From: Candidatus Saccharimonadia bacterium
GTDB taxonomy: Bacteria; Patescibacteriota; Saccharimonadia; Saccharimonadales; JALRHH01
Assembly (NCBI GenBank): GCA_023253175.1
Contig: JALRHH010000001.1
Location: 428,020-492,019, forward strand
DNA: 64,000 bases
Direction: 5' to 3'
Positions 32,705-54,038 of this stretch are shown piece after piece (the first letter of the stretch is position 1; every line of letters begins with the position of its first letter). The position numbers and the translations under genes are program-made. A model generated the notes under the pieces. The model did not search any database. It had not been told where the DNA came from and saw nothing but the letters and a program-made list of their open reading frames with translations.

Positions 32705-32758
32705 GTACTCCCTCTTCTTCGAAAAAGTCGGTCTATCTGCCGAATAACTAATGTATCT

Positions 32759-32769: not shown

Positions 32770-32834
32770 AGGCCTACCCTGTTACCAGAAGCTGACGAAG
32801 TATTTTTCCCAACGTTCCGTAGACAATATAAAAA

Positions 32835-32923
32835 GCGTGAAAACCTTCTTTAGACAAAGTTTTCACGCTGTAACAGATGAAGCTATGCTGTGTGAAATGT
32901 TCTGTAGCCAAAACTTTTCACAG
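32835..32923. repeat. composite double-hairpin intergenic element, copy A
   Basis: GCGTGAAAAC-N14-GTTTTCACGC, then tg-TAACAGATG, then TGTGAAA-N18-TTTCACA. It ends 7 nt from the hpf stop. An A5 run at 32830-32834 gives a U-run on the minus strand. Confidence 0.85.
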
Positions 32924-32929
32924 AAAATA

Positions 32930-33292
32930 TTACGCCGGAGTGCGCTTAAGCCGCATAATTACCTTTCGATGAATTCTATGGGCGTTATGAGTATCCTTGT
33001 ATTTCTTAAGCTGGTTCTTGAGGCGGGCCTCTACGATATCTACAGCCGCGAACATATTGATGGTCGATTCTTTGACGATGATAGTGTCACCAGGAAGATG
33101 AAGTACGACTTCGCACTCGCGCTCTTGCTTGGCCTTAATCGTTCGCTCTTTAACGAAGACTTCAGCGTGGGCGGACTCACGGGCGTGCCGTGGCATGTAC
33201 TTATCAAGTTTGCCAATCTTCCGTGTAATATACTTCTTTAGGTCGTCGGTTAAAACTGTATGAACGCCATTGATCTCCAACTTTTGGATCAT
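32930..33292 (-). CDS. hpf: ribosome hibernation promoting factor
   Basis: MIQKLEINGVHTVLTDDLKKYITRKIGKLDKY… matches the HPF/RaiA (sigma-54 modulation protein) pattern. I prefer the ATG at 33292, which is preceded by AAGGAGGG. Confidence 0.85.
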   Translation of the reverse strand: MIQKLEINGVHTVLTDDLKKYITRKIGKLDKYMPRHARESAHAEVFVKERTIKAKQERECEVVLHLPGDTIIVKESTINMFAAVDIVEARLKNQLKKYKDTHNAHRIHRKVIMRLKRTPA

Positions 33293-33382
33293 ATGCCCTC
33301 CTTGTTTTAGATGCTTCGGGTAGTGACTACCCGATACCATTATTATACGCCTGTCCGTGAAAGAAAACTGTGAATCGTTTGA

Positions 33383-34681
33383 CTAAATACGTTCGCGGCC
33401 GCCCATGTATGGACGAAGCGCTTCAGGTACCACTACATCGCCTTCAGCCGTCTGATAGTTTTCGATAATGGCGATCGGACCACGACTTAGTGGAAGTGCG
33501 GTTGCATCATTGGTGTGAATGATTTCTAGTTCACCAGAGGTTCGTTTTACGCGAGTCTTGAGGCGACGTGCCTGATAATTAGTCATATAGTCAGCAGTGT
33601 GGGTTTCACGGTACTTTTGCTGACCTGGCATCCATGCTTCGATATCAACTCCGCGTGCATTTGGCTTGCCAATATCAGCCGTACATTTACTCAGTACCTG
33701 ATACGGAATTTCTAGAAGCTGCATAATTTTTTCCTGGATTGCTATAAGGAATAGATGTTCGTCGGTACCAACTTCACCAAGTCCTAAGCTCTCCATTTCA
33801 AGTTTATCGAATTGGTGCATACGGAAGATACCTTCCATGTCCTTGCCGTAGGTACCGGCTTCGCGTCGGAAGCTTGAGGCATAACCGATATAACGAATTG
33901 GCAGTTCAGCTTCCTGAAAGACTTCATCTGCGTGCATGCTCCCCAGCACATGTTCGGCACTTCCCTGTAACCACAGATCTTCGTCTTCAATCTTATAACG
34001 GTCATCACGTGGTTCTAAACGGTCCATCGCATCATATAATTCAGTGCGAAGCATGAACGGAGGCAGCACCGGGAGGAATGGTTTGTTGCTCACGCTTAGA
34101 TTATTCTCTGAAATAACTTCGTCAATAAATGACTGGTCAGTTAACTTATCCATGACAAATTGAATGATCGCAAACTGCAACTTAACCAAATCGCCCTTTA
34201 GATATGCGAAACGAGGACCGGTAACTTTGGCAGCGCGCTCTTTGTCGAGCCAGCCTTTTGCGTAGGCAATATCTGCGTGGCTCTTTGGCTCGAAATCGAA
34301 CTTCGTTGGTTCACCAACAATTTTTGCTACGACGTTTTCGTCTTCGCTTGCGCCAACAGGCACATCATCAGCTGGCATATTTGGCACTTTCTTAAGCAGA
34401 TCAATAAATTCTTGCTCGATGCTTCCAAGTTGGTGTTCAAGATCCGCAAGCTGATCTTTGATTTCTTTGCCTTTGGCGATCATTTCATCTGATGGCTTGC
34501 CGCCCTTCATGCTGGCTGCAATTTCGTTACGCTGCTGACGGAGCGCATCTACCTCACCCTGCAGGCTTCGGCGCTTTTCATCAAAGCCAAGTAACTGCGT
34601 GACATCAATGTCATAGCCTTTTTGTTTGCTTTTTTCAGCAACAAGTTCTGGATTATCTCGAATTATCTGTATATCAATCAT
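33383..34681 (-). CDS. serS: serine--tRNA ligase
   Basis: 432 aa with an N-terminal coiled-coil arm (MIDIQIIRDNPE…) and class II motifs. A TATACT box lies 6 nt upstream of the ATG. Confidence 0.97.
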   Translation of the reverse strand: MIDIQIIRDNPELVAEKSKQKGYDIDVTQLLGFDEKRRSLQGEVDALRQQRNEIAASMKGGKPSDEMIAKGKEIKDQLADLEHQLGSIEQEFIDLLKKVPNMPADDVPVGASEDENVVAKIVGEPTKFDFEPKSHADIAYAKGWLDKERAAKVTGPRFAYLKGDLVKLQFAIIQFVMDKLTDQSFIDEVISENNLSVSNKPFLPVLPPFMLRTELYDAMDRLEPRDDRYKIEDEDLWLQGSAEHVLGSMHADEVFQEAELPIRYIGYASSFRREAGTYGKDMEGIFRMHQFDKLEMESLGLGEVGTDEHLFLIAIQEKIMQLLEIPYQVLSKCTADIGKPNARGVDIEAWMPGQQKYRETHTADYMTNYQARRLKTRVKRTSGELEIIHTNDATALPLSRGPIAIIENYQTAEGDVVVPEALRPYMGGRERI

Positions 34682-34695
34682 GCAGACAGTATAAC

Positions 34696-35493
34696 TTACT
34701 TCTTAGAAATCTTGGACTTCAAAGCCTCGAGAGTGAGTTCTGTTCGCTGGCGAGCGTAGGTACAGAATTCGCAAGGACCACCCATCGCAGCAGTGCCAAT
34801 TGGCGGCATCGTGTCACTGTCCATACATGCTTTCATTGCCACAATGGTCTGCTCCACCCAGTCTGATGATCCGGTATGAGGAAACACATGTGTCACAAAT
34901 TCTACTCGATTGTTGAATCCATCGAGATCCTGACGGCCAGTTGCATACACAAAATATCCAGTATCACTCACTGCAAAGCCGTTTTGACGAAGTAGCCACT
35001 GGTATACCTCCATCTGGCGACGGTACATGTCGTGCCACGTTCCCTCTGGGCCAAGCGCCGTTACGGGCTTATCCTTAGCAGTTGCTTTGTAATCAACCAC
35101 GATAAGTTCACCATCGTCGTTTACCCAAATATCATCAACCGCCCCAAAAATATGAAGGTTGGTTGGTTTATGCAGGGTGGTTATGCCTGTAAAGTTGTAG
35201 CGCCATGTATCAAGATCATCGTGTTGATACGGCACTGCTTTGATCTGATTGTCGAGCATCAATGGATGAGGCTCGCCCTTTGCCCGGTAGCCATCAAATT
35301 CTTTTTTAAATAGTTCATCAATAGCTTTGTTGATATTAAACGGAGGTCCGCTTGGGCGCGTAATTTTGAGCCGAGCGTCCAGCCAAAAGCAGCGCTGACA
35401 CTGCATGAACAGTTCTATTTTGCTGCGTGACAATTTAAACGGTGTTTTTTGACCCGGTAAATACGGCTGTGATCGTTCCCTCGTGTAACTCAT
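34696..35493 (-). CDS. PD-(D/E)XK nuclease family protein, Cas4/RecB-like, with Cys cluster
   Basis: 265 aa. N-terminal CQRCFW plus C-terminal CEFCTY resemble 4Fe-4S ligands as in the Cas4/AddB type. The nuclease core is GAVDDIWV…VVDYKAT. Confidence 0.6.
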   Translation of the reverse strand: MSYTRERSQPYLPGQKTPFKLSRSKIELFMQCQRCFWLDARLKITRPSGPPFNINKAIDELFKKEFDGYRAKGEPHPLMLDNQIKAVPYQHDDLDTWRYNFTGITTLHKPTNLHIFGAVDDIWVNDDGELIVVDYKATAKDKPVTALGPEGTWHDMYRRQMEVYQWLLRQNGFAVSDTGYFVYATGRQDLDGFNNRVEFVTHVFPHTGSSDWVEQTIVAMKACMDSDTMPPIGTAAMGGPCEFCTYARQRTELTLEALKSKISKK

Positions 35494-35512
35494 GTTTGTC
35501 TATTGTATCAGC

Positions 35513-37621
35513 CTAGGTGTGCGAGACTTGCAAATGCCCGTGCTGCAAATTGAATTTATAAAGCTTATGTCGTCCATAGTGGCGCATGATAAAGTAAGCA
35601 CCCGCTAAAGTACCGCCCATTCCGATGCCGCCCAACAATATAAGTAATGCCGCAGATGGGTCCTTCACGTCCTTGCCTGCAGCTATTGCCTGGCGTGACA
35701 TATCGGCATATTGTTCAGCAAGCCGATGCGAAGGATAGAGCGCGCGAACTTGTTCAAATTTAGAGAGCGCTTTTGAGTAGTAGTGCTTACTGTACAGATC
35801 GAGTCCCTCTGCCCACAGAGCCTGTACCCTACCGTCTGCATTCAATGTCACATCTTTTTTATTAACTAAATCCTTGAAGTCTTTAATATCACGGACGTAG
35901 CTCTTAGCGGCATCGCCTGATTCGCCGCTATCATAGCGGTATGTTAATAGACCGATTGATTTGCCTTCGCTATTAACCGCAGGGCCACCACTGTTGCCAC
36001 GTGATGCGTCAGCGTCTGTTTGATACAACTTGCCCGCGCCGCCAGCAGCATCACGAACTGAATTGATAGTGCCTTTAGTTACCGTGACATCAGTTGTTGA
36101 ACTATCGATAAGCTCGTTGTCTGCGTCCCCCGGGAAACCAAACAATGTCACTGGCTGGTTTTGACGCGCGACAGTATCCGAAAGTGTGATGTATGGCGCA
36201 TCCTTGACATCTATTTTCAGGAGTGCGACATCACTTGCCGAAAATCCATTTGATGACTTTGCAATGATACTGAGCTTATCTTCTGACTTGTAGTCATAGC
36301 CGATCACGGCCGCTTGCCGAAAATCCATCGTCTGCTCAAAGTTAGTTGTTAGCTTTTTAATATCGGCTTCGCTGCCCAGCGGCAGTGCTGCCCTGCCTGT
36401 TGCAGCCACGGTAATCTCTCGCTGATTACGCAGCCTAAGGGCATTATCCGGTAGATCATATACTTTGCTTACAGCGGAAGCAGTCAGATCACTGCGACTC
36501 ATTACTTCGCCTATTTGCTTCGTGTTTAAGCCCAGGCCAGCTAAATATTTTTGTAGGAGTGGCCTACTTTGAAGCAGTGCGTCAACAAGCATATCTTTTG
36601 CTCCGTACACGACAACATGCCCATTTGTTGCCACATAACCATCACTTGATACGATGAATCCGCTACCTGTTTTTGCGATACATGTATCACTGGAAAGTTC
36701 AGAACCGTTAAATTCCAAGCTACCACAAATAGTGTGGTATATCTTTACGACAGCCGGTGAAACGAGATCAGCAACATAGGCCTCGCCAACAATAGGTTGC
36801 TGCTTTTTTGCAAAAACAGAGAGACCTTTTACGCTCGCGTCAGTACTGAGCTGCATGGATTGGAGTACTGGCTGCATGGTTGTTGGCACAGCTGCCCCGC
36901 CGCTGATACCGCGAATCGTAATGGCAACTGGTTTTGCATTCACCTGCGCAGACCATACGATAGTTCTTGTGGTGCTACCGGCAAATTTTGGAGCAACAAC
37001 ATACACCGTCTTTGTGACGAAGCTACCGCCAAATGATTCAGTAGTGCGTGATTCTTCGGTAATTGTAGCGAGATTAGTTGAAGGCGGCGCGAAATAATCA
37101 GCCGTTATGGCAGTAATATCAGTTTTGCGCTGGTAGTTATTTTTATACGCCGCGAACGCAGCTGCGTCTGTTTCGGCAAGAACTTCGAGTTCTGTAGCAG
37201 CTTCGTTTGCCGGCACGACACTCGGCAGTGGCTTCAGTGTTACGCCTGTGACCGCAGCACTTTTAGCAAGATCGTCAGCGGAAATATTTGGTCCCGACTC
37301 CTGCTGATGAATCGAAGCCGTAAACTGTTCTGGACTATAGACAAACCCAAAACCGTATGAGGAGCGGACCATTGTTGTTTTAATAGCTTGAGTATTGGTT
37401 ACCGCTTGGGAGAAAAGAGATCTTGGATCAATGGTTTGCCGCGTGATAATCGTAGCCACCTCGAGTAGCAATGCGCCAACAAAAAGCACGCTAACGGCAA
37501 GTAGTAGTAAATGACGCCCACGCACCGGCTTTGCGTGGTACGGCAAATGAAGCATATCGCCAACAATGACGCCTATACCATGCGGTGGTGTTTGTTTTGC
37601 TCCTGACGCCGTAAATGGCAT
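35513..37621 (-). CDS. membrane-anchored trypsin-like (S1) serine protease
   Basis: 702 aa. N-terminal TM, catalytic region TNGHVV…GNSGGPAVN, and a C-terminal helical region with a second TM. The start codon is uncertain. Confidence 0.7.
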   Translation of the reverse strand: MPFTASGAKQTPPHGIGVIVGDMLHLPYHAKPVRGRHLLLLAVSVLFVGALLLEVATIITRQTIDPRSLFSQAVTNTQAIKTTMVRSSYGFGFVYSPEQFTASIHQQESGPNISADDLAKSAAVTGVTLKPLPSVVPANEAATELEVLAETDAAAFAAYKNNYQRKTDITAITADYFAPPSTNLATITEESRTTESFGGSFVTKTVYVVAPKFAGSTTRTIVWSAQVNAKPVAITIRGISGGAAVPTTMQPVLQSMQLSTDASVKGLSVFAKKQQPIVGEAYVADLVSPAVVKIYHTICGSLEFNGSELSSDTCIAKTGSGFIVSSDGYVATNGHVVVYGAKDMLVDALLQSRPLLQKYLAGLGLNTKQIGEVMSRSDLTASAVSKVYDLPDNALRLRNQREITVAATGRAALPLGSEADIKKLTTNFEQTMDFRQAAVIGYDYKSEDKLSIIAKSSNGFSASDVALLKIDVKDAPYITLSDTVARQNQPVTLFGFPGDADNELIDSSTTDVTVTKGTINSVRDAAGGAGKLYQTDADASRGNSGGPAVNSEGKSIGLLTYRYDSGESGDAAKSYVRDIKDFKDLVNKKDVTLNADGRVQALWAEGLDLYSKHYYSKALSKFEQVRALYPSHRLAEQYADMSRQAIAAGKDVKDPSAALLILLGGIGMGGTLAGAYFIMRHYGRHKLYKFNLQHGHLQVSHT

Positions 37622-37690
37622 ACATTCCCCTTTTGCTTAAGGATAAGTATATCAGAGGTATACTCGAAAATATATGCTAGAAAATAGTTC

Positions 37691-38383
37691 CTAAGGAAGA
37701 AGCTTTGCGGCAGCCGTAACAGCGGCAGTTTCAGCGCGGAGTGTGAACTGGCCAAGACCAAGATGAGGTAGGTTGTGCTGGGTAAAAAGTTCATGCTCCG
37801 CGTCACTCCAACCGCCTTCTGGACCAATAAGCACACCAATTGAATCACCGCTGGTTGCCTCAGGAATAGCGCCGCCCTGTTCGCATATGACGAGCGGTAT
37901 ACTCTGCCCAACATGATCAAGCGCCGTTTTTACAAGCATTGGCTCCCGTACGTTCGGTATATCGCTACGACCACATTGCTCCGCAGCCTCGATCACGATC
38001 TTATGCGCACGCTCTGCGTCAAAACCAGTCTTTTCTGAACGCTCTGCGAGCATCGGCACAAAATGTGTCACACCGAGCTCAGTCGCCTTTTGGAGCACCC
38101 AATCATTCTTATCCTTTTTGAGCAGTGACCACAGTAGATACACCTCCTTTGATGGAAGCTGCCGCTCGTAATCAGTCACAAGCTCTAAATGCGCTTCGTC
38201 TGGCTTAATTTCCACAATCTTGTACAACCTATCGGTTTGCGCGCCATCAAATAACAAGACATTCTGCCCTGCCTGATAACGTAAAACTTTGTTCCACTGA
38301 TGAATAAGCCGCTCATCGTGTAGCCAAAATGAATGTTTTAATTCAAATTCATTACCGACATAAAACCTGTGAACTCGGCTCAT
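37691..38383 (-). CDS. rsmE: 16S rRNA (uracil1498-N3)-methyltransferase
   Basis: The N-terminus MSRVHRFYV…, the size (230 aa) and the C-terminal GPEGGW motif are typical of RsmE. Confidence 0.85.
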   Translation of the reverse strand: MSRVHRFYVGNEFELKHSFWLHDERLIHQWNKVLRYQAGQNVLLFDGAQTDRLYKIVEIKPDEAHLELVTDYERQLPSKEVYLLWSLLKKDKNDWVLQKATELGVTHFVPMLAERSEKTGFDAERAHKIVIEAAEQCGRSDIPNVREPMLVKTALDHVGQSIPLVICEQGGAIPEATSGDSIGVLIGPEGGWSDAEHELFTQHNLPHLGLGQFTLRAETAAVTAAAKLLP

Positions 38384-39627
38384 TTTACCTCCAGGATCGC
38401 TAAACTTTCTATATGTGGTGTACGCGGGAAGAAATTAAAACCCTCGATACTTTTAATCGTATACTTTTCCTGCAGTAGCGCCAAGTCACGCGCCTGAGTA
38501 ATTGGATTGCAGCTGAGATATATGACTTTCGCGGGTAGCACTTCCAATATCCTGTCGGTCACTTTTTGGTGCAATCCAGCCCTAGGAGGATCAAGGATCA
38601 ATGTTTCATCAGCAGTGATGTGATCAAGCGCGGTTTCGGCGGAAGCATGCACAATCTCGGTTTTTCCCTCTCCAACATTTTGTTTTGCCATAGCGACGTT
38701 ATGTTCGTCAATTTCAATAAGACGGTTAGCGCCTACCGGGATGCCAATCGTGCCTACGCCGGAATACATATCGGCACTAGAGCCGTCTATCTCACCAGCA
38801 ATTCGATCAAGCGCCTTGCTGAAGATTTCTAGATTGACCTGGAAAAATGAATTTACATCGTAGGTTATCGGAACGCCTTTTATAGCATCCGTTAATCTGA
38901 CATCGCCGTATAGATACAGCTCCCGCGTCAAAACACTGGCTGGGCTTTTTGGATTTGAATAGTAAACTGCCACCCCTTTAGCGGCTCCCGCAAGCTCAGG
39001 CAGATCCGGGAATGATTCATCTTTCACAAATAACGCTACAACCGCATCACCGTTTTGATTTGCACGCACCACAACCGTTTTTAACTGAGAACCTCGAATG
39101 TCGTTTTGATTTAGTATCTCTACGATCTTAGCTGCAGTCTCATCAATAAGAGGCATGGCGATACTACTGCCGTTAATGATCTGCTTGCGATGAGAGCCTC
39201 GATTAAATAATGCCAGATGCAGGCCATCGTCATCCGCCCAGAAGCTGTATTCCATCTTATTACGATAGTGCCACTGCTTTTCACCGGCCTGCATTGTGAT
39301 TTCAGATGGAAAATCCACATGTTCGCGCTGCATTGTCTCGACAAGGATTTCACGCTTGTATTCATTCTCTTTATCAAAGTCCATAATCTGCCACGGACTC
39401 GTGCTAAGATACGCATCATCTTTTGGTGGTAGCCTAAATTCAGAAGGAATAACGATCTCTTCTGCAATTCCTTCGGCATGACCACGCTTACTCTTAGTGA
39501 GCCTAACGCTCATGGTCTCGCCAGGTAACGCATTCCACACAAAGACACGCCGACCATCCGCCAGCGTGCCTATGCCTTGCCCACCGTGAACAAGCTTTTC
39601 AATTGTAACTTTTTGGAGTTCCATCAA
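38380..39627 (-). CDS. 23S rRNA (uracil-C5)-methyltransferase, RlmD/RumA family
   Basis: N-terminal TRAM-like domain (VHGGQGIG…), a methyltransferase core with DPPRAG, and a C-terminal nucleophile region (YLSCNP). Confidence 0.85.
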   Translation of the reverse strand: MMELQKVTIEKLVHGGQGIGTLADGRRVFVWNALPGETMSVRLTKSKRGHAEGIAEEIVIPSEFRLPPKDDAYLSTSPWQIMDFDKENEYKREILVETMQREHVDFPSEITMQAGEKQWHYRNKMEYSFWADDDGLHLALFNRGSHRKQIINGSSIAMPLIDETAAKIVEILNQNDIRGSQLKTVVVRANQNGDAVVALFVKDESFPDLPELAGAAKGVAVYYSNPKSPASVLTRELYLYGDVRLTDAIKGVPITYDVNSFFQVNLEIFSKALDRIAGEIDGSSADMYSGVGTIGIPVGANRLIEIDEHNVAMAKQNVGEGKTEIVHASAETALDHITADETLILDPPRAGLHQKVTDRILEVLPAKVIYLSCNPITQARDLALLQEKYTIKSIEGFNFFPRTPHIESLAILEVK

Positions 39628-39630
39628 TCC

Positions 39631-40635
39631 TTATTTTTGCAGACCAACAATTAGGATGACTGCAAGCAGTAGCTTTGAGACTACGAGAATACGACTCAGA
39701 TTGCGGTTCACGAATGCAAAATCATATTGCCTTTTAAAGCCGTTCCACTGAATACGAGTCGTAGCCAGAAGCGAGATTGAAACCACTGCAGCGGCTGCGT
39801 ATGCATACCACGGAGATCGAACCGCAACTGACGCGCCATCAGTACCAAAGATGTATGTGGAGATCATCGTAATAACAAGGAATACGACAGGTAATACCGC
39901 AAGCACAGCACTCACCGCATAAATGCCACGAGTCGGCTTACCAGTTGCTGCGTTCTCACGCTCAAATACCCATGCAAGATATGCCGAGATTAAAATAGCG
40001 ATCGCGCTGAGTTTGAGTGCAATGAGGTCCTGCACGCCATTAAGGAGTGCCGCAATTGAAAATGCCACAGATGTGGTAACCGCATAATCAATCCATCGAA
40101 GACTGCTAACTTTATTGGTAACAGCAGCCTGATCTTTGGCCAAGTACTTGGTTCCACGTAGGATTGCAACAACGGCAGCCAATACGAGAAATCCAACTGC
40201 TAGCCAGCGGAATTCTACTTCGTACAGTACGTGTGCCGCAGGTGCGAGAACCGTACCGGCAGTACTTGCAAGCTCATCCTTCGTAAGATGTCCGAGTAGT
40301 ACCTGCACTGAAGTCGTGTTCATAAAGTATGCTGCAAGTCCTGCGAGAACCGCGAACACAATACCAAGCTGAACCTGAAGACGGTTTAGTAGCGGCGTTA
40401 CACCAGAAACTGAAGCCTTAGCAACTGGCTTTGGAGCCTCTGCTGGCTTGATAGTTGACTTAGTGGTTGCTACCGCTTTTTTTACAGCTGGTTTCTTAGC
40501 AGCCCTTGAGGTGGTAGCCTTGGTAGTTCTTGCCGCCTTTACTGCTGGCTTGGTTGCCTTTGCAGTAGATTTTGTAGAAGGCTTTTTATTTGTAGTTTTG
40601 GTCTTTGCCTGAGTTTTAGAAGTTGTCTTTGCCAT
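39631..40635 (-). CDS. heliorhodopsin-like 7-TM protein with Lys/Ala/Thr-rich N-terminal extension
   Basis: Seven predicted TM segments. LRWIDYAVTTSV aligns with FRWVEYSLSSSV, GVQDLIAL with GIADIVAL, VAVRSPWY with VAVPGFVY, and ILVVSKLLLAV with LSLVAKSALAW (the retinal Lys) of heliorhodopsin 48C12. The 48C12 sequence is recalled from memory. The first ~83 aa are a KAT(P)-rich basic tail. Confidence 0.6.
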   Translation of the reverse strand: MAKTTSKTQAKTKTTNKKPSTKSTAKATKPAVKAARTTKATTSRAAKKPAVKKAVATTKSTIKPAEAPKPVAKASVSGVTPLLNRLQVQLGIVFAVLAGLAAYFMNTTSVQVLLGHLTKDELASTAGTVLAPAAHVLYEVEFRWLAVGFLVLAAVVAILRGTKYLAKDQAAVTNKVSSLRWIDYAVTTSVAFSIAALLNGVQDLIALKLSAIAILISAYLAWVFERENAATGKPTRGIYAVSAVLAVLPVVFLVITMISTYIFGTDGASVAVRSPWYAYAAAAVVSISLLATTRIQWNGFKRQYDFAFVNRNLSRILVVSKLLLAVILIVGLQK

Positions 40636-40641
40636 GCGAAC

Positions 40642-40650
40642 AGTGTATCA
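40642..40650 (-). promoter_or_regulatory. extended -10 promoter TGATACACT, 6 nt from the ATG (leaderless)
   Basis: The reverse complement of 40642-40650 is TGATACACT. The ATG is at 40635. Confidence 0.4.
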
Positions 40651-40674
40651 CAACTCTATTTACGGGAAATACGA

Positions 40675-41229: not shown

Positions 41230-41234
41230 GTAAT

Positions 41235-42022: not shown

Positions 42023-42100
42023 ATACCCTCCTATCAGCCCTATAAACCTATTTAAGCGTATTCGATCTTAATTGTCATTACAACCATGACTCATCAAGTA

Positions 42101-44308: not shown

Positions 44309-44384
44309 AATAACTCCCCCTAAACCTTATGGATCCTGTTACCGTCACCTCGGAATCGCATTCATTATACCAATATGCTAATGA

Positions 44385-45635: not shown

Positions 45636-45747
45636 ACTGTTTCCTGTAATTAGATTATAAAAAGTCGTCGAAAAGAAAGGCTACTACGGCTACGCCGGGA
45701 GCTTTGGAACGCGGGGTGATAGTACATGCTGCGTCATAATTACCGTT

Positions 45748-45758
45748 ATTGTACCCCA
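45748..45758 (-). promoter_or_regulatory. extended -10 promoter TGGGGTACAAT for proS
   Basis: The reverse complement of 45748-45758 is TGGGGTACAAT, about 110 nt upstream of the proS ATG. Confidence 0.5.
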
Positions 45759-45768
45759 GTTATGACTT

Positions 45769-46608: not shown

Positions 46609-46612
46609 AGGC

Positions 46613-47740
46613 CTAGAAGAACCGTTTTACATCTACAATTGTAATCAGCACGAACAGTACCATGAGCAGTGCGAACCCAGTGCCGTGAATTCGATCCTCT
46701 GCCTTTTCGGTTAGCTGCCTGCGAAGACCGCGGTATATCAATGTCACAAATAAGCGACCACCGTCCAGTGCAGGAATTGGTAGCACGTTCATGATTGCCA
46801 ATGACAGTGAGATTATCGCAATAACAAATAGTATGAACTGAATACCAAGATCAGATCCCTGTTGCAGCACCACAAATATGCCAACAGGTCCTGTCACTTG
46901 TTCAGTTGCCTTAGCGGTGTCACCCTGGAATAGGCCAGCCACCGCAGAACCAAGTCCCTTGAACGTTAGTTCCGTAAACTGGGCCATCAGACCGCCAGCT
47001 ACAACTGGCGCCGACCATGTGTACCTAGCCACCGTGAATTCACCTGGCGAAATACCAAAGTAACCCTTTGGATTATCGGTTTTTTTACTTGCCTCAACTT
47101 CTTCTGTACTGCGGAGTTGTACTTCTGTGCGCTTCAATTCACCATCACGGCGATACTGAACGAGTACCTTTTGACCTGCAAATTCCTTAGTGTATTTTGG
47201 CAGTGCCTCGTCGGTCTTGATGGTATGCTGTGGCCCATCAACCTGGCCGATACTTGCAATAACATCACGGCACTGAAGCCCAGCCTTCTCCGCAGGAGAA
47301 CCTTCCTCAAGATAACCAATGAACACATCCTGGCGCGTAATTGTTTCGTTATTTGTAACCGCAAACTGATTATCAACGAGCTTTGGGATACCCACCAGCG
47401 CAAGCAGCACCAGGAGTACGTATGCGGTCACAAGATTCATAACCACACCAGCAACCATAATCTTGACCTTAGTCAGGAGCGGCGCAGCGCCGTAACTACC
47501 CTTTGTTTTGTTGGCATCATGCTCACCCTTCAGACGCACAAACCCCCCAAGCGGCAGCCAGTTGAGTGTATATTCTGTACCATTTTTCTTAGTTAGGGTC
47601 TTGGCTTTTGGTGGGAAGCCAATCCCAAATTCTTCAACATCGACACCCCCACGGCGAGCCATAATAAAATGGCCCCACTCGTGTATAACAACCAATCCGA
47701 CAAATAAAACAAGCCCCAGAATCAATAAGAAGATCGACAT
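46613..47740 (-). CDS. rseP: RIP metalloprotease RseP (site-2 protease, M50)
   Basis: HEWGHF (HExxH) in TM1, an internal PDZ domain (GSPAEKAGLQCRDVIASIG) and the C-terminal NVLPIPALDGG. Confidence 0.9.
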   Translation of the reverse strand: MSIFLLILGLVLFVGLVVIHEWGHFIMARRGGVDVEEFGIGFPPKAKTLTKKNGTEYTLNWLPLGGFVRLKGEHDANKTKGSYGAAPLLTKVKIMVAGVVMNLVTAYVLLVLLALVGIPKLVDNQFAVTNNETITRQDVFIGYLEEGSPAEKAGLQCRDVIASIGQVDGPQHTIKTDEALPKYTKEFAGQKVLVQYRRDGELKRTEVQLRSTEEVEASKKTDNPKGYFGISPGEFTVARYTWSAPVVAGGLMAQFTELTFKGLGSAVAGLFQGDTAKATEQVTGPVGIFVVLQQGSDLGIQFILFVIAIISLSLAIMNVLPIPALDGGRLFVTLIYRGLRRQLTEKAEDRIHGTGFALLMVLFVLITIVDVKRFF

Positions 47741-47749
47741 ATACGAATA

Positions 47750-47758
47750 ATTATACCA
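47750..47758 (-). promoter_or_regulatory. extended -10 promoter TGGTATAAT, 9 nt from the rseP ATG
   Basis: The reverse complement of 47750-47758 is TGGTATAAT. There is no SD before the ATG at 47740. Confidence 0.5.
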
Positions 47759-47804
47759 AACAGGTCCTGAAAACTATAAGCTTTATACACTACCTGAATG
47801 TATT

Positions 47805-47891
47805 CTGTGAAAACTTTTTGTACCCAATATTTTCACAAAATAACAGATACAGAATGTCCCGTGAAAACTTTATTATCACAAAATTTTCATG
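47805..47891. repeat. composite double-hairpin intergenic element, copy B
   Basis: CTGTGAAAAC-N15-ATTTTCACA, then aaa-TAACAGATA-cagaatgtcc, then CGTGAAAAC-N15-TTTTCATG. It ends at the base before the uppS stop codon. Confidence 0.85.
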
Positions 47892-48584
47892 CTATTTGCC
47901 GAAGCGGCGTTTGCGATTGGAGTAATCTTCAAGTGCTACGTCGAGAGCTTGCTCATCAAAGTCAGGCCACATGGTATCCGTGAAATAGAGTTCAGCGTAC
48001 TCTGAGCGCCAAAGCATAAAGCCAGATGTGCGCCGTTCACCGGAAGTTCGAATGAGGAGGTCAATCTCCGGCACTTCAGGTGCGTAAACATGCTGCATGA
48101 TAAGTTCTGGGGTGATTTCTTCTGATGTAACACCAGAGTTAACAATTCCTTTTACAGCATCAACGAGCTCGGCCTTGCCGCCGTAGTTGAAACAGAGTGC
48201 TAACGTACCCCGTGTATTGTCCCGTGTGAGTTCCTCTGTCTTTTCAATAGCTTTTAAGACTGATTTATCAAGCCCTTCGCGGCGACCAAGCAGCACAATC
48301 TTTATATTGGCTTCATGAAATGTCTTTAGATGTTTCTCGACCGCTTTGATGAGCAGTTTCATCAAGTAACCCACTTCTTCTTCAGTACGTTGCCAGTTCT
48401 CTGTCGAAAACGTATAAGCACTGACATACTTCACGCCGCGATCAAATGCCGCGAGAGATACTGCCCTGAATGCCTCGGCTCCTTGCCTGTGGCCTTCGAG
48501 CGTTGGCAGTCCTTTTGCTTTTGCCCAACGACGATTACCATCAAGAATCAGCCCAACATGTGCCGGAATCGATTGCTCGCTCAT
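47892..48584 (-). CDS. uppS: isoprenyl transferase (undecaprenyl-diphosphate synthase)
   Basis: HVGLILDGNRRWAK and the C-terminal RTSGERRTSGFMLW are typical of UppS. Confidence 0.95.
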   Translation of the reverse strand: MSEQSIPAHVGLILDGNRRWAKAKGLPTLEGHRQGAEAFRAVSLAAFDRGVKYVSAYTFSTENWQRTEEEVGYLMKLLIKAVEKHLKTFHEANIKIVLLGRREGLDKSVLKAIEKTEELTRDNTRGTLALCFNYGGKAELVDAVKGIVNSGVTSEEITPELIMQHVYAPEVPEIDLLIRTSGERRTSGFMLWRSEYAELYFTDTMWPDFDEQALDVALEDYSNRKRRFGK

Positions 48585-48587
48585 AAA

Positions 48588-49151
48588 TTAGACTGTTAGG
48601 ATTTCTTGCTCTTTGGCCTTGGACGCTGCCTCAGCCTGTGTCTTGTACTGTGTCAGGTTATCTTCGACTTGCTTCTGAAGGCGCTTCGCCTCGTCTTCAC
48701 CAATTTCTTTGTCTTTTTTACCCTGATCAATTGCATCCATCGCATCACGGCGAATGTTTCGGAGCACAACCATGCAGTCTTCAAGCTTACCGCCCACAAC
48801 CTTTACGTATTCGCGGCGACGCTCTTCGTTGAGCGGGGGGATTGGCACGCGAACCACACGGCCATCGTCAGATGGATTAAGCCCAAGTGTTGGATTATCA
48901 CGAATTGCAGATGCAATCGCTTGGATGTTACCCGGGTCAAACGGAGTGATCTGTAGTAACTGGCCTTCTGGAGCAGTCACATTTCCAACCTGAATCAGCG
49001 GCATATCGGCGCCATATGCCTTGACGACAACACCATCAAGCATGCTTGGGTGTGCACGTCCCGTTCGAACGCTCTTTAAGTCTTCTTCAAAATGTTTTAC
49101 TGCATTTTGGAATTTTGTATCCGCATCATTGACTGCCTGCACTGGATTCAT
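48588..49151 (-). CDS. frr: ribosome recycling factor
   Basis: 187 aa. Typical RRF pattern (…VRTGRAHPSMLD…VPIPPLNEERRREYVK…). Confidence 0.95.
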   Translation of the reverse strand: MNPVQAVNDADTKFQNAVKHFEEDLKSVRTGRAHPSMLDGVVVKAYGADMPLIQVGNVTAPEGQLLQITPFDPGNIQAIASAIRDNPTLGLNPSDDGRVVRVPIPPLNEERRREYVKVVGGKLEDCMVVLRNIRRDAMDAIDQGKKDKEIGEDEAKRLQKQVEDNLTQYKTQAEAASKAKEQEILTV

Positions 49152-49185
49152 AGAAATCTCCTGTCTTACTAACTACTAAGTATAG

Positions 49186-49215
49186 AAAAAAACAGCGGTA
49201 AATTCTACCGCTGTT
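49186..49215 (-). terminator. rho-independent terminator between the 83-aa ORF and frr
   Basis: AACAGCGGTA-aattc-TACCGCTGTT, with an A7 run on the plus strand that gives U7 on the minus strand. Confidence 0.7.
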
Positions 49216-49235
49216 TTCGTTTTATTGAACGTCCT

Positions 49236-49487
49236 CTATGGATTAAGGCTATCACAACGCGCGGAAGAGTGTTCGGCAAAACATTCATCCATTTGATGCC
49301 GCTCATCCTCACCCCAGTCACGAATAGTGGAATAATTATCCATTACAACATCCCTGAGTTCTAGCGTAGGATTGCCACTCCACCACTGATGGATGACATC
49401 CTGTACGAATGTACGGCACCTCTCTAGCTGCTCAGCATCATCGATTAATCGAAGGCCACACTCACCGCACGGCGATTTCTCTCTCAT
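49236..49487 (-). CDS. hypothetical Cys-containing small protein
   Basis: 83 aa with an N-terminal CGEC plus three further Cys residues. It occupies the position between tsf and frr. Confidence 0.45.
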   Translation of the reverse strand: MREKSPCGECGLRLIDDAEQLERCRTFVQDVIHQWWSGNPTLELRDVVMDNYSTIRDWGEDERHQMDECFAEHSSARCDSLNP

Positions 49488-49494
49488 AGTGAAG

Positions 49495-50094
49495 CTAGGC
49501 TACTTCGCCAAGGGCGATGCGAGAGAAGCGACGCACAACTACGTTCTCGTTCATCAGAGCAGCTTGCTGCTTCACGTAGTCACCGACCGTCTGGTCTGGG
49601 TTCTTGATGTAAGGCTGGTCCATAAGACATAGCTCAGCAAAGTACTTCTTGAGCTGACCTTCAACAATTTGATCAGCCATTTCAGCTGGCTTGTTCTTGA
49701 GTGCATCACTTGCGAGCAGTTCCTGCTTCTTAGCTTCACGTGTTTCTGCAGGGATATCATCCGCACTGACGTATGCAGGTGCTGATGCAGCAATGTGCAT
49801 CGCAACATCCTTTACGAGTTCTGCAAAGATATCACCGCGAGCCACAAAGTCTGTCTCACAGTTAAGTTCAACGATTACACCGATACGGCCGCCATGGTTG
49901 TATGTGCCAACCTGACCTTCGCGTGCTTCACGCTCACCACGCTTTTCAGCCTTGGTAAGTCCCTTTTTACGCATCGCTTCAAGTGCTTTATCAAAGTCGC
50001 CTTCTGCCTCTACAAGTGCAGCTTTAGCGTCGGTAATACCAACACCAGTTAGTTCGCGTAGGCGCTTGATTTCTTCGATACTAATATTTGCCAT
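49495..50094 (-). CDS. tsf: translation elongation factor Ts (short form)
   Basis: The N-terminal UBA-like IKRLRELTGVGITDAKAALVEAEGDFDKALEAMRKKG is canonical. 199 aa. Confidence 0.95.
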   Translation of the reverse strand: MANISIEEIKRLRELTGVGITDAKAALVEAEGDFDKALEAMRKKGLTKAEKRGEREAREGQVGTYNHGGRIGVIVELNCETDFVARGDIFAELVKDVAMHIAASAPAYVSADDIPAETREAKKQELLASDALKNKPAEMADQIVEGQLKKYFAELCLMDQPYIKNPDQTVGDYVKQQAALMNENVVVRRFSRIALGEVA

Positions 50095-50265
50095 TTTTTT
50101 CTCCTTTACGTGCGTGCATACGTATGTGGCACATTCTTAGGCGTCGAGCTTACGTCTGATCCTTCACCGTACTTCAGTACGCTTCAGGCTCAAGCCTCGC
50201 TCGTCATCCTAGACTGCACTCACCTACATATCCACTTAACAGTGGTTATTTCTTGTTAAAAAGAG

Positions 50266-51003
50266 CTATTTCTCGTCTTTGTCAGCTGATTTTGCTTCTG
50301 ACTTTTTAGCAGCCTTAGCAGCACCCGCTGTGATAGCAGCCTCTACGTAACTACCGATAAGCTGGATAGCCTTGATCGCGTCGTCGTTCGCAGGAATTGG
50401 GTATGCAACCTGACTTGGATCTGCGTTGGTATCAACAAGTGCAACGACAGGCACACCAAGCTTGTTCGCTTCGCGCACTGCGTTTACGTCGTGAGTAACA
50501 TCGAATACAAATACTGCACCTGGTTTTGCAGCCAAGTTCTTGATTCCACCATAAATGTGGTTCATGTCATCGATTTCTTCCTGGAAACGCTGTACTTCGA
50601 GCTTGTTGTACTTGGTCGCAAGCGCGCCAGATTCCATCTTGCCCTCAAGATCCTTGAGGTGCTTCACGCGGCCGCCAATAGTGTTACGGTTTGTGAGCAT
50701 ACCGCCGAGCCATCGCTCTACAACAAATGGTTGTTTGGTGTTTTCAGCGATCTGCTTTGCAACATCGTGCGCCTGGCGCTTCGTACCAACGATAAGAATC
50801 TGCTTACCTTCAGCCGCTGTGTTCTCGAGGAAGTTCAGCGCTGACTCAAGGCTAGAAACAGTCTTGGTAAGATCGATGATATGGCTACCACCGCGCTTAC
50901 TGTGGATGTACTGAGCCATCTTAGGGTGCCAACGACTGGTCTTGTGACCAAAGTGAGCACCTGCTTCTAATAGTTTTTTGATATCAACATCAACTGATGC
51001 CAT
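50266..51003 (-). CDS. rpsB: 30S ribosomal protein S2
   Basis: MASVDVDIKKLLEAGAHFGHKTSRWHPKM is a canonical S2 N-terminus. I prefer the ATG at 51003 to the track start at 51069. Confidence 0.95.
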   Translation of the reverse strand: MASVDVDIKKLLEAGAHFGHKTSRWHPKMAQYIHSKRGGSHIIDLTKTVSSLESALNFLENTAAEGKQILIVGTKRQAHDVAKQIAENTKQPFVVERWLGGMLTNRNTIGGRVKHLKDLEGKMESGALATKYNKLEVQRFQEEIDDMNHIYGGIKNLAAKPGAVFVFDVTHDVNAVREANKLGVPVVALVDTNADPSQVAYPIPANDDAIKAIQLIGSYVEAAITAGAAKAAKKSEAKSADKDEK

Positions 51004-51136
51004 AAAATAGAACCTTTCTTGAATCCTTGACCTTCGGATGGATGCCAATACGGATCTCGAGCGAGACATCGTACCAGAGGATTCTTTCCAACCTGCTTAC
51101 TTAATTACCAAGCTATTCTAACAGAGTAGAGACAGA

Positions 51137-51165
51137 TTGACAATACCTAAGCATTGCGGTAAACT
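51137..51165 (+). promoter_or_regulatory. sigma70-like promoter TTGACA-N17-TAAACT for rpmE2
   Basis: TTGACA at 51137-51142 and TAAACT at 51160-51165, about 75 nt upstream of the ATG at 51242. Confidence 0.5.
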
Positions 51166-51241
51166 GTCCCAGTTATAACGTTGACTGCAGCAAGGCCTAC
51201 TGCTAACCAGCGAAATCATTAATTGGCCAAGGATTTATACA

Positions 51242-51580
51242 ATGAAAAAAGATATCCACCCAAGCAACTACCGCCCCGTAGTTTTCCAGGATCTAAATAC
51301 TAACGACACCTTTCTGACTCGTTCTGTTGTTGCAACAGATGATAAGATTACGCTCGACGGCGTAGAATACCCACTCGTTAAGATCCACATTTCTAGCAAG
51401 TCTCACCCGTTCTTCACTGGGCAGGAAAAGATGCTCGACATCGAAGGTCGTGTTGACAAGTTCAAGGCTCGCCAAGAAGCAGCTAAAGAGCGCGCAGAAG
51501 CACTTAAGAAGGCAGCAGCTAAGAAATCAGCAGCTAAGCCATCTAACAAAGAAGCAGCTAAGAAGCTCGGCGAAAAGTAA
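51242..51580 (+). CDS. rpmE2: 50S ribosomal protein L31, type B, with Lys/Ala-rich C-terminal extension
   Basis: MKKDIHPSNYRPVVFQD… without the CxxC zinc motif indicates type B. The C-terminus has about 35 extra residues (AAKERAEALKKAAAKKSAAKPSNKEAAKK). Confidence 0.9.
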   Translation: MKKDIHPSNYRPVVFQDLNTNDTFLTRSVVATDDKITLDGVEYPLVKIHISSKSHPFFTGQEKMLDIEGRVDKFKARQEAAKERAEALKKAAAKKSAAKPSNKEAAKKLGEK

Positions 51581-51595
51581 CTACAGAGATTTAAG

Positions 51596-51624
51596 ACCAC
51601 CCGTCACTTCGATGGGTGGTTTTT
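51596..51624 (+). terminator. rho-independent terminator after rpmE2
   Basis: ACCACCC-gtcacttcgat-GGGTGGT followed by TTTT. Confidence 0.75.
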
Positions 51625-51653
51625 AATTGCATACGGGTATACTAAGTAAGACT

Positions 51654-52718
51654 ATGGAAGCCAAAGAACAAGCCCTTCGCGCGGAATACGCAGAATTACA
51701 GGAAAAGTTACAAGATCCTGGTGTGTTTAGTACACCTGAGTACCCAAAGCTCGCCAAGCGTCAGAGCAAGCTCGAGGCAATCATTTCCCTATTTGATGAG
51801 TATTATCAGCTGCAGGACGCTAAAAAACAGGCAGAAGAGATTGTTGCCAGCGGCGATGCCGAGATGACCGAGCTTGCAGAGCTGGAGCTTACCGAACTAG
51901 AACCCAAGATTGCAAGCAACGACGAGCAGCTCGCAGAAGCCCTGACACCGAAAGATCCAAATGACGAAAAAGACATCGTCATCGAAATTCGCGCAGCTGC
52001 CGGAGGCGACGAATCAGCTATTTTTGGCGGAGAGCTATACCGCATGTATGTCCGCTGGGCAGAAGCGCACGGCTACAAAACAGAACTTATTAGCGAAAGC
52101 CCTTCTGATAATGGTGGTTTCAAAGAAATCGTCTTTGAAATTCACGCTGATGATGCCTACCGCATGCTCAAGTTCGAGGCTGGCGTGCATCGTGTTCAGC
52201 GTGTCCCTGCAACGGAATCTCAAGGTCGCATCCACACCAGTACCGTAACCGTGGCAGTCATGCCGGTGGCCGAAGAAACTGATATCGAAATCCACCCGAA
52301 TGACCTCCGTATCGATGTATACCGCGCCGGTGGCCATGGTGGCCAGTCGGTTAACACAACAGACAGTGCCGTGCGTATTACCCACCTTCCATCAGGTCTT
52401 GTCGTCAGCAACCAGGATGAAAAATCCCAGATCAAAAACAAGGAAAAAGCCATGAGCGTCCTCCGTTCACGACTCCTCCAGCACAAGATCGATGAAGAAC
52501 AGTCTAAGCTATCAGAAGCTCGCCGTAAACTCATCGGCTCAGGTGACCGCTCTGAGAAAATCCGTACCTATAACTTCCCGCAGGACCGTATCACCGATCA
52601 CCGCGTTGGCTATTCACGTAGCAACATCCCCGCTGCCCTTGCTGGTGATATCGACGACATCATCGAACAACTCCATGATTATGAACGCCAACTTATCAAC
52701 GACGAGCCAGCAGCTTAG
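51654..52718 (+). CDS. prfA: peptide chain release factor 1
   Basis: PAT tripeptide ([14 protein letters not shown]) and the GGQ motif ([22 protein letters not shown]). I prefer the ATG at 51654, 10 nt after a TATACT box. Confidence 0.95.
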
Positions 52719-53514
52719 GTTAGCTGAAAAACTTCTAGCAGATGCAGGTATTGAGTCAGCACGACTTGACAGCTTGATATTACTTGAAGATGTGACCGGC
52801 AAGGGTCGTGCTCACTTACTGGCACACCCGGAACTTGAGCTTACAGCTGAGCAACAGGAGAAACTTGATAGCATGGTTCAGCGCAGACTAACACACGAAC
52901 CGCTCGCATATATCCGCGGTAAGGCGGAGTTTTATGGCCGTGAATTCATCGTTAACGAAGATGTGCTTGTTCCCCGCCCGGAATCGGAATCAATGATCGA
53001 TATACTTTCTCGCTATGGTCATATTCCGCTCATCATTGATGTTGGCACAGGTAGCGGTGCACTGGCAATATCTGCCGCGCTAACTAAACCTGACTCAGAA
53101 GTTATTGCAGTAGATATTGATGAAAACTGCCTGGGGGTTACCAAACAAAATGCCAAGCAGCTCGGCGCTGATATCGAAACAAAGCACGGTGATTTACTCA
53201 GAAATATTAATCTTGATGCTTACCCTGGACCTGTTGCTATACTCGCCAATCTTCCATACGTACCGGACGAATATGAAATAAATCAGGCTGCGAACCATGA
53301 ACCAAAACTCGCATTATTTGGTGGACCCGATGGGCTCGACCTGTACCGCATTATGTTTGATCAATTAGACGCGTTTGAAGACCAAGAGATCATTGTGATA
53401 ACGGAGACCCTGGAGTCGCAGCACGACAACCTAGCAGGCATCGCCAAAAATCACGGCTTCGTCCCCGGCAAGACTGAAGTGCTCACCCAATCATTTACAC
53501 GCATCCCCGTATAA
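52681..53514 (+). CDS. prmC: release factor glutamine N5-methyltransferase (HemK/PrmC)
   Basis: SAM motif [14 protein letters not shown]. The catalytic tetrapeptide reads NLPY instead of NPPY. The start overlaps the prfA 3' end (ATG at 52681 or 52675); the track ORF starting at 52492 is over-extended. Confidence 0.85.
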
Positions 53515-53530
53515 CCGTATACTTTAGCGT

Positions 53531-53959
53531 ATGCATAAGATTTATTTTGCCTGCTCTATCCGTGGTGGCCGAGATGATGCAGAAATATACCAAGAACTGG
53601 TTGACCACATTAAAACTAAGGCTGTTGTTTTGACTGAAATTTTTGCCGACAATAAGCTCACGCCCCAAGGCAGCCCTGACCCTAGCGAGTTTATTCATGA
53701 ACGAGACATGTCATGGGTAACCGAAGCTGATGCGGTTATTGCCGAGGTTAGCAATCCAAGCCTCGGCGTAGGCTACGAAATTGCCAAGGCAGAAGAGATG
53801 GGCAAACCGGTACTTGCCCTGTATCGGCCACAAGAAGGCCGTAAACTTTCTGCTATGATCGAAGGATCACCACAGACGGATGTCGTTACCTATACTTCTG
53901 CCAAGGAAGCCTCATTTGCCATCAATGGATTCATTGAATATCTTGCCGTGAAAAGTTAG
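53531..53959 (+). CDS. DNPH1/Rcl-like 2'-deoxynucleoside 5'-phosphate N-hydrolase (nucleoside 2-deoxyribosyltransferase superfamily)
   Basis: KIYFACSIRGGRDD…VLTE…HERDMSWVTEADAVIAEVSNPSLGVGYEIA…LSAMI closely parallels the DNPH1 pattern (YFCGSIRGGRED…PSLGVGYE…LSAMI). Confidence 0.8.
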   Translation: MHKIYFACSIRGGRDDAEIYQELVDHIKTKAVVLTEIFADNKLTPQGSPDPSEFIHERDMSWVTEADAVIAEVSNPSLGVGYEIAKAEEMGKPVLALYRPQEGRKLSAMIEGSPQTDVVTYTSAKEASFAINGFIEYLAVKS

Positions 53960-54038
53960 ACCCTAGGCCTTTTCACGAAATAACAGATATACGAAAACCG
54001 CGTGAAAACTTCTGTAGCAAAAGTTTTCACGCGGTTTT
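53947..54038. repeat. composite double-hairpin intergenic element, copy C (second hairpin is an 18-bp perfect stem and bidirectional terminator)
   Basis: CGTGAAAAG-N13-CTTTTCACG, then aaa-TAACAGATA-tacg, then AAAACCGCGTGAAAACTT-ctgtagcaa-AAGTTTTCACGCGGTTTT. The first arm overlaps the stop codon of the DNPH1-like gene. The element ends 12 nt from the htrA stop. Confidence 0.9.

Follow-up and report, generated by a model that had tools for sequence, protein, structure and literature searches.

In Escherichia coli, BIME-1/RIP elements have the order REP, IHF site, REP, that is, two palindromic units flanking a conserved central box. BIME and REP elements lie at the 3' ends of transcription units, their presence varies between strains, and their hairpins can stabilise the upstream mRNA. 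The HrcA operator CIRCE is a spaced inverted repeat that serves as an operator in duplex DNA and also, as a hairpin in the RNA, influences the fate of the mRNA, the E. coli loci datA and DARS2 are non-coding modules of ~100 bp or larger that combine oppositely oriented boxes with an IHF site, and the A-box of the P1 plasmid centromere parS is ATTTCAC/A. Here we describe a family of three intergenic modules (A, B and C) in a 64-kb segment of a Saccharibacteria (TM7) chromosome, hereafter the window, on which most genes lie on the minus strand. Its SecA and HtrA recur unchanged on a 950-kb NCBI contig, and Candidatus Saccharibacteria supply the closest named homologues. Each module consists of two palindromic units (PU1 and PU2) around the box TCTGTTA, and in all three the arms of both units are CGTGAAAAS/STTTTCACG, with the same TTTCAC core as the P1 A-box.

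In P1 parS, boxes are repeated around a central IHF site (PMC2910045), and the modules resemble it as composites of ~80-90 bp in which a heptamer-type box in both orientations, in P1 read by a ParB helix-turn-helix, flanks a distinct central box (PMC2910045). P1 parS differs: it is one site on a plasmid, its boxes are of two types and its IHF site is proven, whereas the modules stand in several chromosomal copies at operon ends and their protein sites are predicted from sequence. Compared by eye, TCTGTTA agrees with 7 of the 9 positions of the IHF consensus WATCARNNNNTTR, a partial match that serves as an analogy only. With chromosomal parS the modules share CGTGAAA, identical to the centre plus one arm (half-site) of TGTTTCACGTGAAACA, and a location within ~28 kb of parAB. 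In contrast to chromosomal parS, they have no 16-bp palindrome, the half-sites are 13-15 bp apart or head-to-tail, position 1 is T and not G, and the ParB encoded in the window lacks the R173 of parS-reading ParBs. Both parS and the residues with which ParB recognises it are held to be nearly universal among bacteria.

Compared with BIME and REP elements, copy number appears low, positions are conserved, and loops vary while the arms are fixed; there is no GTAG, no RAYT was seen among the window genes, and the arms also occur as promoter-proximal direct repeats. The modules are like DnaA-box clusters in being built from a 9-mer that forms clusters of two to four boxes, in both orientations, in non-coding DNA; unlike in such clusters, the word outside the modules is tied to par promoters, and the hairpin features are foreign to them. 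CIRCE differs in being a single unit at the 5' ends of chaperone operons, with the unrelated sequence TTAGCACTC-N9-GAGTGCTAA.

Architecture and conservation of the modules

The three modules stand where the original prediction had placed double-hairpin elements and have the sequences it gave (the second copy in fact begins at 47806). Its gene context holds as well: hpf and secA at the first site, uppS and rseP at the second, and a DNPH1-like gene converging on htrA at the third. The features are as follows.

32835-32923, minus strand: Module A, between the hpf stop codon and the secA promoter (covariance model match 100.5 bits)
32835-32844 and 32859-32868: arms of hairpin 1 of Module A, GCGTGAAAAC and GTTTTCACGC
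32871-32879: core word of Module A, TAACAGATG
32888-32923: hairpin 2 of Module A
32923-32888, 32877-32871 and 32868-32835, minus strand: PU1, core TCTGTTA and PU2 of Module A in gene-sense order, followed by T5
47806-47891, minus strand: Module B, abutting the uppS stop codon, upstream of rseP (covariance model match 93 bits)
47806-47814 and 47829-47837: first arm pair of Module B, TGTGAAAAC and ATTTTCACA
47841-47849: core word of Module B, TAACAGATA
47860-47868 and 47884-47891: second arm pair of Module B, CGTGAAAAC and TTTTCATG
47891-47860, 47847-47841 and 47837-47806, minus strand: PU1, core TCTGTTA and PU2 of Module B in gene-sense order
53947-54038, minus strand: Module C, between the converging DNPH1-like gene and htrA (covariance model match 96 bits)
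53947-53955 and 53969-53977: first arm pair of Module C, CGTGAAAAG and CTTTTCACG
53981-53989: core word of Module C, TAACAGATA
53994-54009 and 54023-54038: 16-bp arms of the long stem of Module C
54038-53994, 53987-53981 and 53977-53947, minus strand: PU1, core TCTGTTA and PU2 of Module C in gene-sense order

Read on the minus strand, the layout is PU1, 9-13 variable bases, TCTGTTA, three bases and PU2. The arms are 22-23 bp apart inside a unit, and the two units of a module are 54-55 bp from each other; units are 30-45 nt long, and every one is intergenic. In Module C, PU1 is a 16-18-bp stem with A and T runs on its flanks, and PU2 overlaps the stop codon of the DNPH1-like gene. Downstream of Modules A and B, at a distance of 55-80 nt, are the promoters of secA and rseP. 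The fixed orientation of the copies, earlier taken as meaningful, carries no such weight: three co-oriented copies have p = 0.25 by chance.

The family is real, as both arm pairing and word counts are far above chance expectation. Five convergent GTGAAA-N14-20-TTTCAC pairs were seen in the window against 0.027 expected, with a maximum of one in 150 Markov simulations. CGTGAAAAS occurs ten times on both strands of the window (1.4 expected), CGTGAAAAC with at most one mismatch occurs 33 times (16.9 expected; 0 of 100 shuffles reach 33), and the arm words rank among the most repeated 10-12-mers of the window. When run with filters off, a covariance model built from six copies finds only the three modules in the window, at 93-100 bits, and the next-best match there scores 12 bits. 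The 9-mer had been described as repeated and always intergenic; the repetition stands, with seven exact CGTGAAAAC sites, but one of them (21622-21630) is inside the CTP-synthase gene. The core word likewise keeps only part of what was claimed for it: its fixed position is significant, but TAACAGAT alone, seen four times against 2.2 expected, is not enriched. Across relatives, its invariant part is 7 nt, TAACAGA (TCTGTTA on the minus strand). Another repeated 10-mer, ATAATCAGCA, occurs mostly within unrelated coding contexts and was therefore set aside as a chance repeat. Across the whole window, Rfam gave no match at gathering score, and a tRNA/tmRNA search found none.

For comparison, ~1.2 Mb of Saccharibacteria DNA was collected as loci (labelled L with a number) fetched via PrfA, SecA and HtrA homologues. 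The module family is confined to the genus-level Saccharibacteria clade of the window. Among these loci, modules were found in four relatives only, L004 (HtrA 82%), L167 (96%), L168 (85%) and L169 (80%), always at positions orthologous to B or C. The Module B orthologues (L004:1185-1275 and L169:18060-18150) are downstream of the uppS operon, and the Module C orthologues (L167:5422-5530 and L168:11203-11315) are downstream of htrA, in L168 between htrA and prmC. The clade DNA scanned for modules (~178 kb) holds three distinct sites in total, A, B and C. Among genome contigs, PrfA led to one informative close relative, L004. Modules were found neither in ~40 more distant Saccharibacteria reached via PrfA in genome contigs nor in metagenome-contig relatives reached via PrfA, all at <=74% identity. 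The exact pattern GTGAAAA-N13-19-TTTTCAC-N4-TAACAGAT gave no match in 185,579 GTDB species representatives, a set that does not include the source species.

Orthologous copies differ in a consistent manner. In the B orthologues (window, L004 and L169), as in the C orthologues (window, L167 and L168), the four arms and TCTGTTA are unchanged and the loops and spacers are scrambled; 43 positions remain unchanged among orthologous copies while the loops randomise, and the logo of 43 sites reads C-GTGAAAA-S-T. Invariant arms and box between scrambled loops amount to site-by-site purifying selection on the sequence. The conserved loop reported earlier is indeed common to three units of this genome, as A-PU1, A-PU2 and C-PU1 share TTTTG(G)CTACAGAA, but it is scrambled in orthologues and is no feature of the family. 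Since the C-PU1 loop of the 96%-identical L167 differs, the loop common to the three units points to intragenomic copying, and Module A appears to be the recent copy.

Module A was seen in the window only, and the orthologous hpf-secA spacers of L165 (SecA 97%) and L164 (SecA 88%) are without it. The L164 spacer is short; that of L165 contains an additional gene along with ordinary terminators, and its secA promoter is identical. In L165:7852-8744, which corresponds to 32707-32929 of the window, a 176-aa gene without a Pfam match and two terminators take the position of Module A. Module C is not present in L166 (HtrA 92%), L004, L169 or L171. The DNPH1-like gene is found elsewhere in the P0005 contig, between a PDDEXK gene and serS, and is missing in L004, L168 and L169. 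Taken with the extra gene of L165, the shifting DNPH1-like gene indicates that module sites coincide with points of gene gain and loss. The L168 contig ends within uppS, just ahead of the expected site of Module B, which would fit an assembly break caused by a repeat; the L166 contig ends 61 nt past htrA, with no module there.

The arm word at par promoters and the ParB reading head

Outside the modules, the arm word forms an array in front of the parAB operon of the window.

58656-59513, minus strand: parB (Pfam, translation), candidate reader of the word
59513-60271, minus strand: parA (Pfam)
60321-60339, minus strand: arm-word array, CGTGAAAAC-T-CGTGAAAAG, two head-to-tail copies with a 10-bp period

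The array is 26 nt upstream of the extended -10 of parA (TGGTATAAC). Upstream of parA, L169 has four head-to-tail copies, whereas the window, L004, L166, L168 and L171 have two each; their period is 10-11 bp, and between the final copy and the extended -10 the distance is always either 16 or 26 nt, values that are one helical turn apart. Among more distant Saccharibacteria, in L008 a tandem pair of the word abuts the parB -10, in L032 two copies bracket the parA -10, and in L026 and L064 word pairs stand upstream of parA. Throughout the 1.2 Mb of loci, par promoters are the only intergenic places where the word stands in close pairs. A direct repeat is unable to fold into a hairpin, so here the word is read on double-stranded DNA, and its phasing to the promoter by helical turns, as is typical for regulators bound to DNA, argues that it is a duplex recognition site. 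Our verdict is that a DNA-binding protein, also present on the parAB promoter, most probably recognises the arm word. Among the three roles offered by the original prediction (REP/MITE-like element, 3'-UTR or small-RNA family, protein-binding module), the last is best supported, through the par-promoter repeats and through arms and TAACAGA that stay invariant while loops diverge.

Distances of the sites from parA are 0.05, 6, 12.5 and 27.5 kb. Modules A, B and C all stand on the origin-distal side of parAB, 6-28 kb away from it; the plus strand of the window has a uniformly negative GC skew, which puts the origin outside the window, past its right end.

Related words were seen at several other places. 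Upstream of parA in L007 (at 17122) and L014 (at 18757) stands ATCTGTTA(C/G)GCTTA, which contains the module core TCTGTTA; these two par promoters are without the GTGAAAA word. CCTGTTA occurs upstream of parA in L016 and L025. In L021 (PrfA 76%), positions 11349-11376 within the prmC coding sequence carry three head-to-tail GTGAAAAG-type words with 12- and 10-bp spacing, which may be a repeated VKS peptide or a coding-embedded site. Viral contigs gave nine pattern matches, all unrelated, five of them copies of one phage coding sequence and one a high-GC GGGTGAAAA iteron array. L172:1100-1260, from an unrelated organism in IMG/VR with 59% GC, has dense GGGTGAAAA(C/T)A repeats with an 11-bp period and inverted TTTTCACC copies; this array resembles iterons or a plasmid/phage centromere, and its GTGAAAA core is the same as that of the arm word.

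The ParB of the window has the cytidine triphosphate (CTP) motif GERRWRA and is otherwise a standard CTP-type ParB, but its helix-turn-helix reads LSKAETTVSN versus the canonical GKSRSHVAN. In a solved-structure alignment with Caulobacter ParB, Q162 is replaced by Y, G170 by S and R173 by E, whereas K171, N178, G201 and R204 are kept. G1 of the half-site is read by R173, a residue reported to be absolutely conserved among orthologues of ParB (PMC7383237). The word TTTTCAC departs from the half-site GTTTCAC only at base 1, the position read by R173, and A6, linked to G201, is kept. The equivalent of R173 is missing in 51 of 51 Saccharibacteria ParB segments recovered (~50 loci), where the residues at this position include E, T, P, V, H, I, A and K.

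Canonical parS was equally missing. Allowing <=3 mismatches, TGTTNCACGTGAAACA has no match in the window, and no canonical parS matched in any Saccharibacteria par locus examined; the 12-mer core of parS at <=2 mismatches occurs at chance level, and an abutting TTTCACGTGAAA palindrome was searched for and is absent. The loss of R173 together with the lack of canonical parS looks like a phylum-level change of centromere recognition. Half-sites can be bound on their own: Pseudomonas aeruginosa ParB binds isolated GTTTCAC/GTTCCAC half-parS heptamers genome-wide in vivo (PMC10419367).

We propose, with a probability of roughly 0.4, that the elements are composite modules of ParB-type binding sites and that, once transcribed, they form 3' hairpins as well. 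Each module would be a composite array of sites for one sequence-specific protein that binds double-stranded DNA and also occupies the parAB promoter. The recognition word would be CGTGAAAAST, present in four copies per module as two inverted pairs, with TCTGTTA as a second invariant box 3 nt before the second unit. ParB would be the most likely reader, and the word a lineage-specific half-parS (TTTTCAC instead of GTTTCAC). The modules, which would load or hold ParB, and the promoter array may together make up a non-canonical centromere and operator cluster within ~28 kb of parAB, in a layout resembling the A-box / central-site / A-box of P1 parS. Since the sites are long palindromes at operon 3' ends, their transcripts would fold into hairpins, and in a secondary RNA role that may matter the sense-strand hairpins would be kept pairable by selection, as terminators or 3'-end protectors. 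A broader version is possible but doubtful: Saccharibacteria may have dropped the 16-bp parS, with ParB, which has lost R173, nucleating in the clade of the window on dispersed arrays of the re-specified half-site (TTTTCAC), a P1-like composite chromosomal centromere. Its parts would be the tandem repeats at the parAB promoter and the paired modules with a central accessory box at operon ends.

Several points weigh against ParB-type modules. Own-genome DNA scanned amounts to 64 kb plus 6 kb of a 950-kb genome (the window is ~7% of it), and the additional 6 kb beyond the window holds no further module. Site A is missing in a 97%-identical relative and site C in a 92%-identical one, so individual sites are dispensable. 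Relatives whose ParB has a GKAETT head (L007, L005, L087, L013 and L017) have no intergenic CGTGAAA within 10 kb of parAB, while relatives with H, V, P or I at position 173 do have the word at par promoters; with near-identical heads lacking the word and differing heads having it, the motif does not track the ParB head. We know of no chromosomal ParB that loads from split or tandem half-sites. Covariation and the folding bias of the sense strand, described below, are not needed by a duplex protein site. The remaining objections favour DnaA as the reader: the word fits equally well the box TTWTTCACN of W. succinogenes, at 8 of 9 positions and including the TTCAC core found in DnaA boxes of Epsilonproteobacteria, and head-to-tail 9-mers 1-2 bp apart resemble DnaA-oligomer arrays.

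RNA hairpins and rival explanations

A covariance model with a check for compensatory changes had been suggested as a way to examine the family. The model finds the three window sites, and the pairs flanking the invariant core covary (CG/UA, CG/GC/UG): the covariation score is 0.232 against 0.110 in shuffled alignments, a value that 0 of 500 shuffles reach, and 92% of cells are paired. The gene-sense strand folds better in 13 of 14 units, with summed energies of -218.5 versus -173.3 kcal/mol, because mismatches are G.U on that strand and A.C on the other. The covarying pairs and the folding bias lend the proposed 3'-UTR or small-RNA role partial support. By analogy with CIRCE, we read this as probable secondary selection on transcripts as 3' hairpins, in which case the A-PU2 and C-PU1 hairpins would be real terminators. 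The hairpin evidence would equally fit single-stranded DNA hairpins on the lagging-strand template, and this keeps a REP-like explanation alive.

That the modules are ordinary intrinsic terminators that merely look alike is essentially excluded. A-PU2 does have a canonical hairpin followed by T5, and C-PU1, with its 16-18-bp stem and A/T-run flanks between converging genes, is arguable as a terminator; yet terminator scans flagged A-PU2 as the only one of six hairpins and none in 47-61 kb. The Module B units, the B copies of L004 and L169 and the C copy of L168 are without a sense-direction U-tract, and in the B copies and the L168 and L169 copies neither strand has one. The stems of other terminators in the window are unrelated, the arms are identical to a degree far above chance, and the arms also occur as non-hairpin direct repeats, so the earlier view of the elements as more than plain terminators is borne out. 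A REP/BIME-like family is unlikely. Its units would have been spread through recombination or a single-strand transposase of the RAYT type, would be tolerated at the 3' ends of operons or serve there as hairpins that stabilise or terminate mRNAs, and would have been secondarily co-opted into the par arrays. In favour of it, the units are paired, intergenic, 30-45 nt long and at 3' ends, their pairing covaries, and the sense strand, which is the lagging-strand template, is the better-folding one in 13/14 units. Presence varies among close relatives, three units share a loop that L167 C-PU1 does not have, an ordinary terminator hairpin of L165 sits exactly at the A-PU2 position with the same T-tract downstream, and the outer arms could serve as 9-bp inverted repeats. 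This much of the suggested REP/MITE role stands. What speaks against it is that only three distinct sites were seen in 178 kb of clade DNA, the relatives having the same sites and not new ones, and that the 43 unchanged positions between randomised loops reflect purifying selection and not the neutral decay of a mobile repeat. Half-arm direct-repeat arrays at a promoter are not a REP feature either. The REP foot GTAG is missing from the 5' ends and is confined to the interior of some loops. Scans of nearly every window gene against Pfam (the window being ~7% of the genome) revealed no Y1_Tnp (RAYT) domain and no transposase or regulator adjoining the modules, no target-site duplication flanks any copy, and relatives without a copy carry other sequence and not the clean empty site of a MITE.

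DnaA and a dedicated transcription factor are the other candidate readers. In the first case, which we consider improbable, STTTTCACG would be the Saccharibacteria DnaA box and the modules DnaA-box clusters outside oriC in the style of datA, DARS or B. subtilis; they would titrate or remodel DnaA, the par array would couple parAB expression to initiation, and TCTGTTA would be bound by an architectural protein. With its nine bases the word fits the relaxed box TTWTNCACA at 7 of 9 positions, and TTWTTCACN is an experimentally defined DnaA-box variant of W. succinogenes (PMC5043019). The arm word also recurs at par promoters across lineages with differing ParB heads, which fits a reader more conserved than ParB. 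However, its restriction in pairs to par promoters among ~40 Saccharibacteria loci would be odd for a global DnaA box, the intergenic word is missing from most Saccharibacteria loci although DnaA is universal, positions 1 (S) and 9 (G) are both off-consensus, and hairpin covariation and strand bias are left unexplained. A tblastn search for dnaA with a Bacillus-type DnaA as query had no match in the window or in 184 loci, and oriC is likewise not present in these sequences. Just as improbable is an operator for a transcription factor that would control parAB and, via the modules, the adjoining genes for envelope and secretion functions, secA, rseP and htrA; a winged-helix response regulator or a CtsR-like repressor reading direct heptads with a 10-bp period would be candidates. 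The CtsR operator GGTCAAA-NAN-GGTCAAA has the same form as the par-promoter array. Such a factor would suit direct repeats of 10-11 bp phased 16 or 26 nt from the -10 and replacing a -35, sites that bracket or abut the -10 in L032 and L008 as repressor operators do, and the place of Modules A and B 55-80 nt ahead of the secA and rseP promoters. Yet Module C, conserved in three genomes, lies between converging genes with no promoter to control, Module A is missing in a relative with an identical secA promoter, and no DNA-binding regulator is encoded near the sites, the response regulators at 12051-12422 and 20088-20516 being receiver-only.

Some further candidates were rejected. TCTGTTA plus arm does not make a sigma-70 or ECF promoter, as the spacings are unfit and Module C has nothing to transcribe. 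The density is too low for a DNA-uptake sequence, and coding DNA never shows an enrichment of the word. Neither in sequence nor in architecture is a match known to integron attC, dif, Ter, matS or CRISPR repeats.

Other genes of the window and implications

Some genes of the window deserve mention in their own right. A 345-aa protein with a KwaB-like domain (Kiwa anti-phage defence) is encoded at 3127-4164 on the minus strand, and the KwaB-like gene is followed at 4227-6281 by several genes without a Pfam match. A heliorhodopsin gene (39631-40635, minus strand) keeps its position in the close relatives L002 and L164. Directly upstream of parA, at 60346-64000 on the minus strand and in L181:1-9926, lies the gene of a 1767-aa Peptidase_S74 (endosialidase chaperone) protein, which is preceded by a Kelch-repeat protein of more than 2058 aa; among relatives, the S74 protein is 968-1767 aa long.

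A whole candidate-phylum lineage has no canonical parS around parAB and a changed reading residue in ParB, and of the intergenic words near parAB just one is repeated, a 10-mer that resembles a half-site. Should ParB be the reader of this word, the modules would be the first chromosomal centromere made of split half-sites, and ParB-CTP clamps would be loadable without a palindrome. If DnaA reads it, the word would define the Saccharibacteria DnaA box and the modules would be control elements like datA and DARS. The word supplies a defined oligonucleotide for binding assays, and together with the covariance model it gives a handle for finding origins or centromeres in uncultured, reduced genomes.

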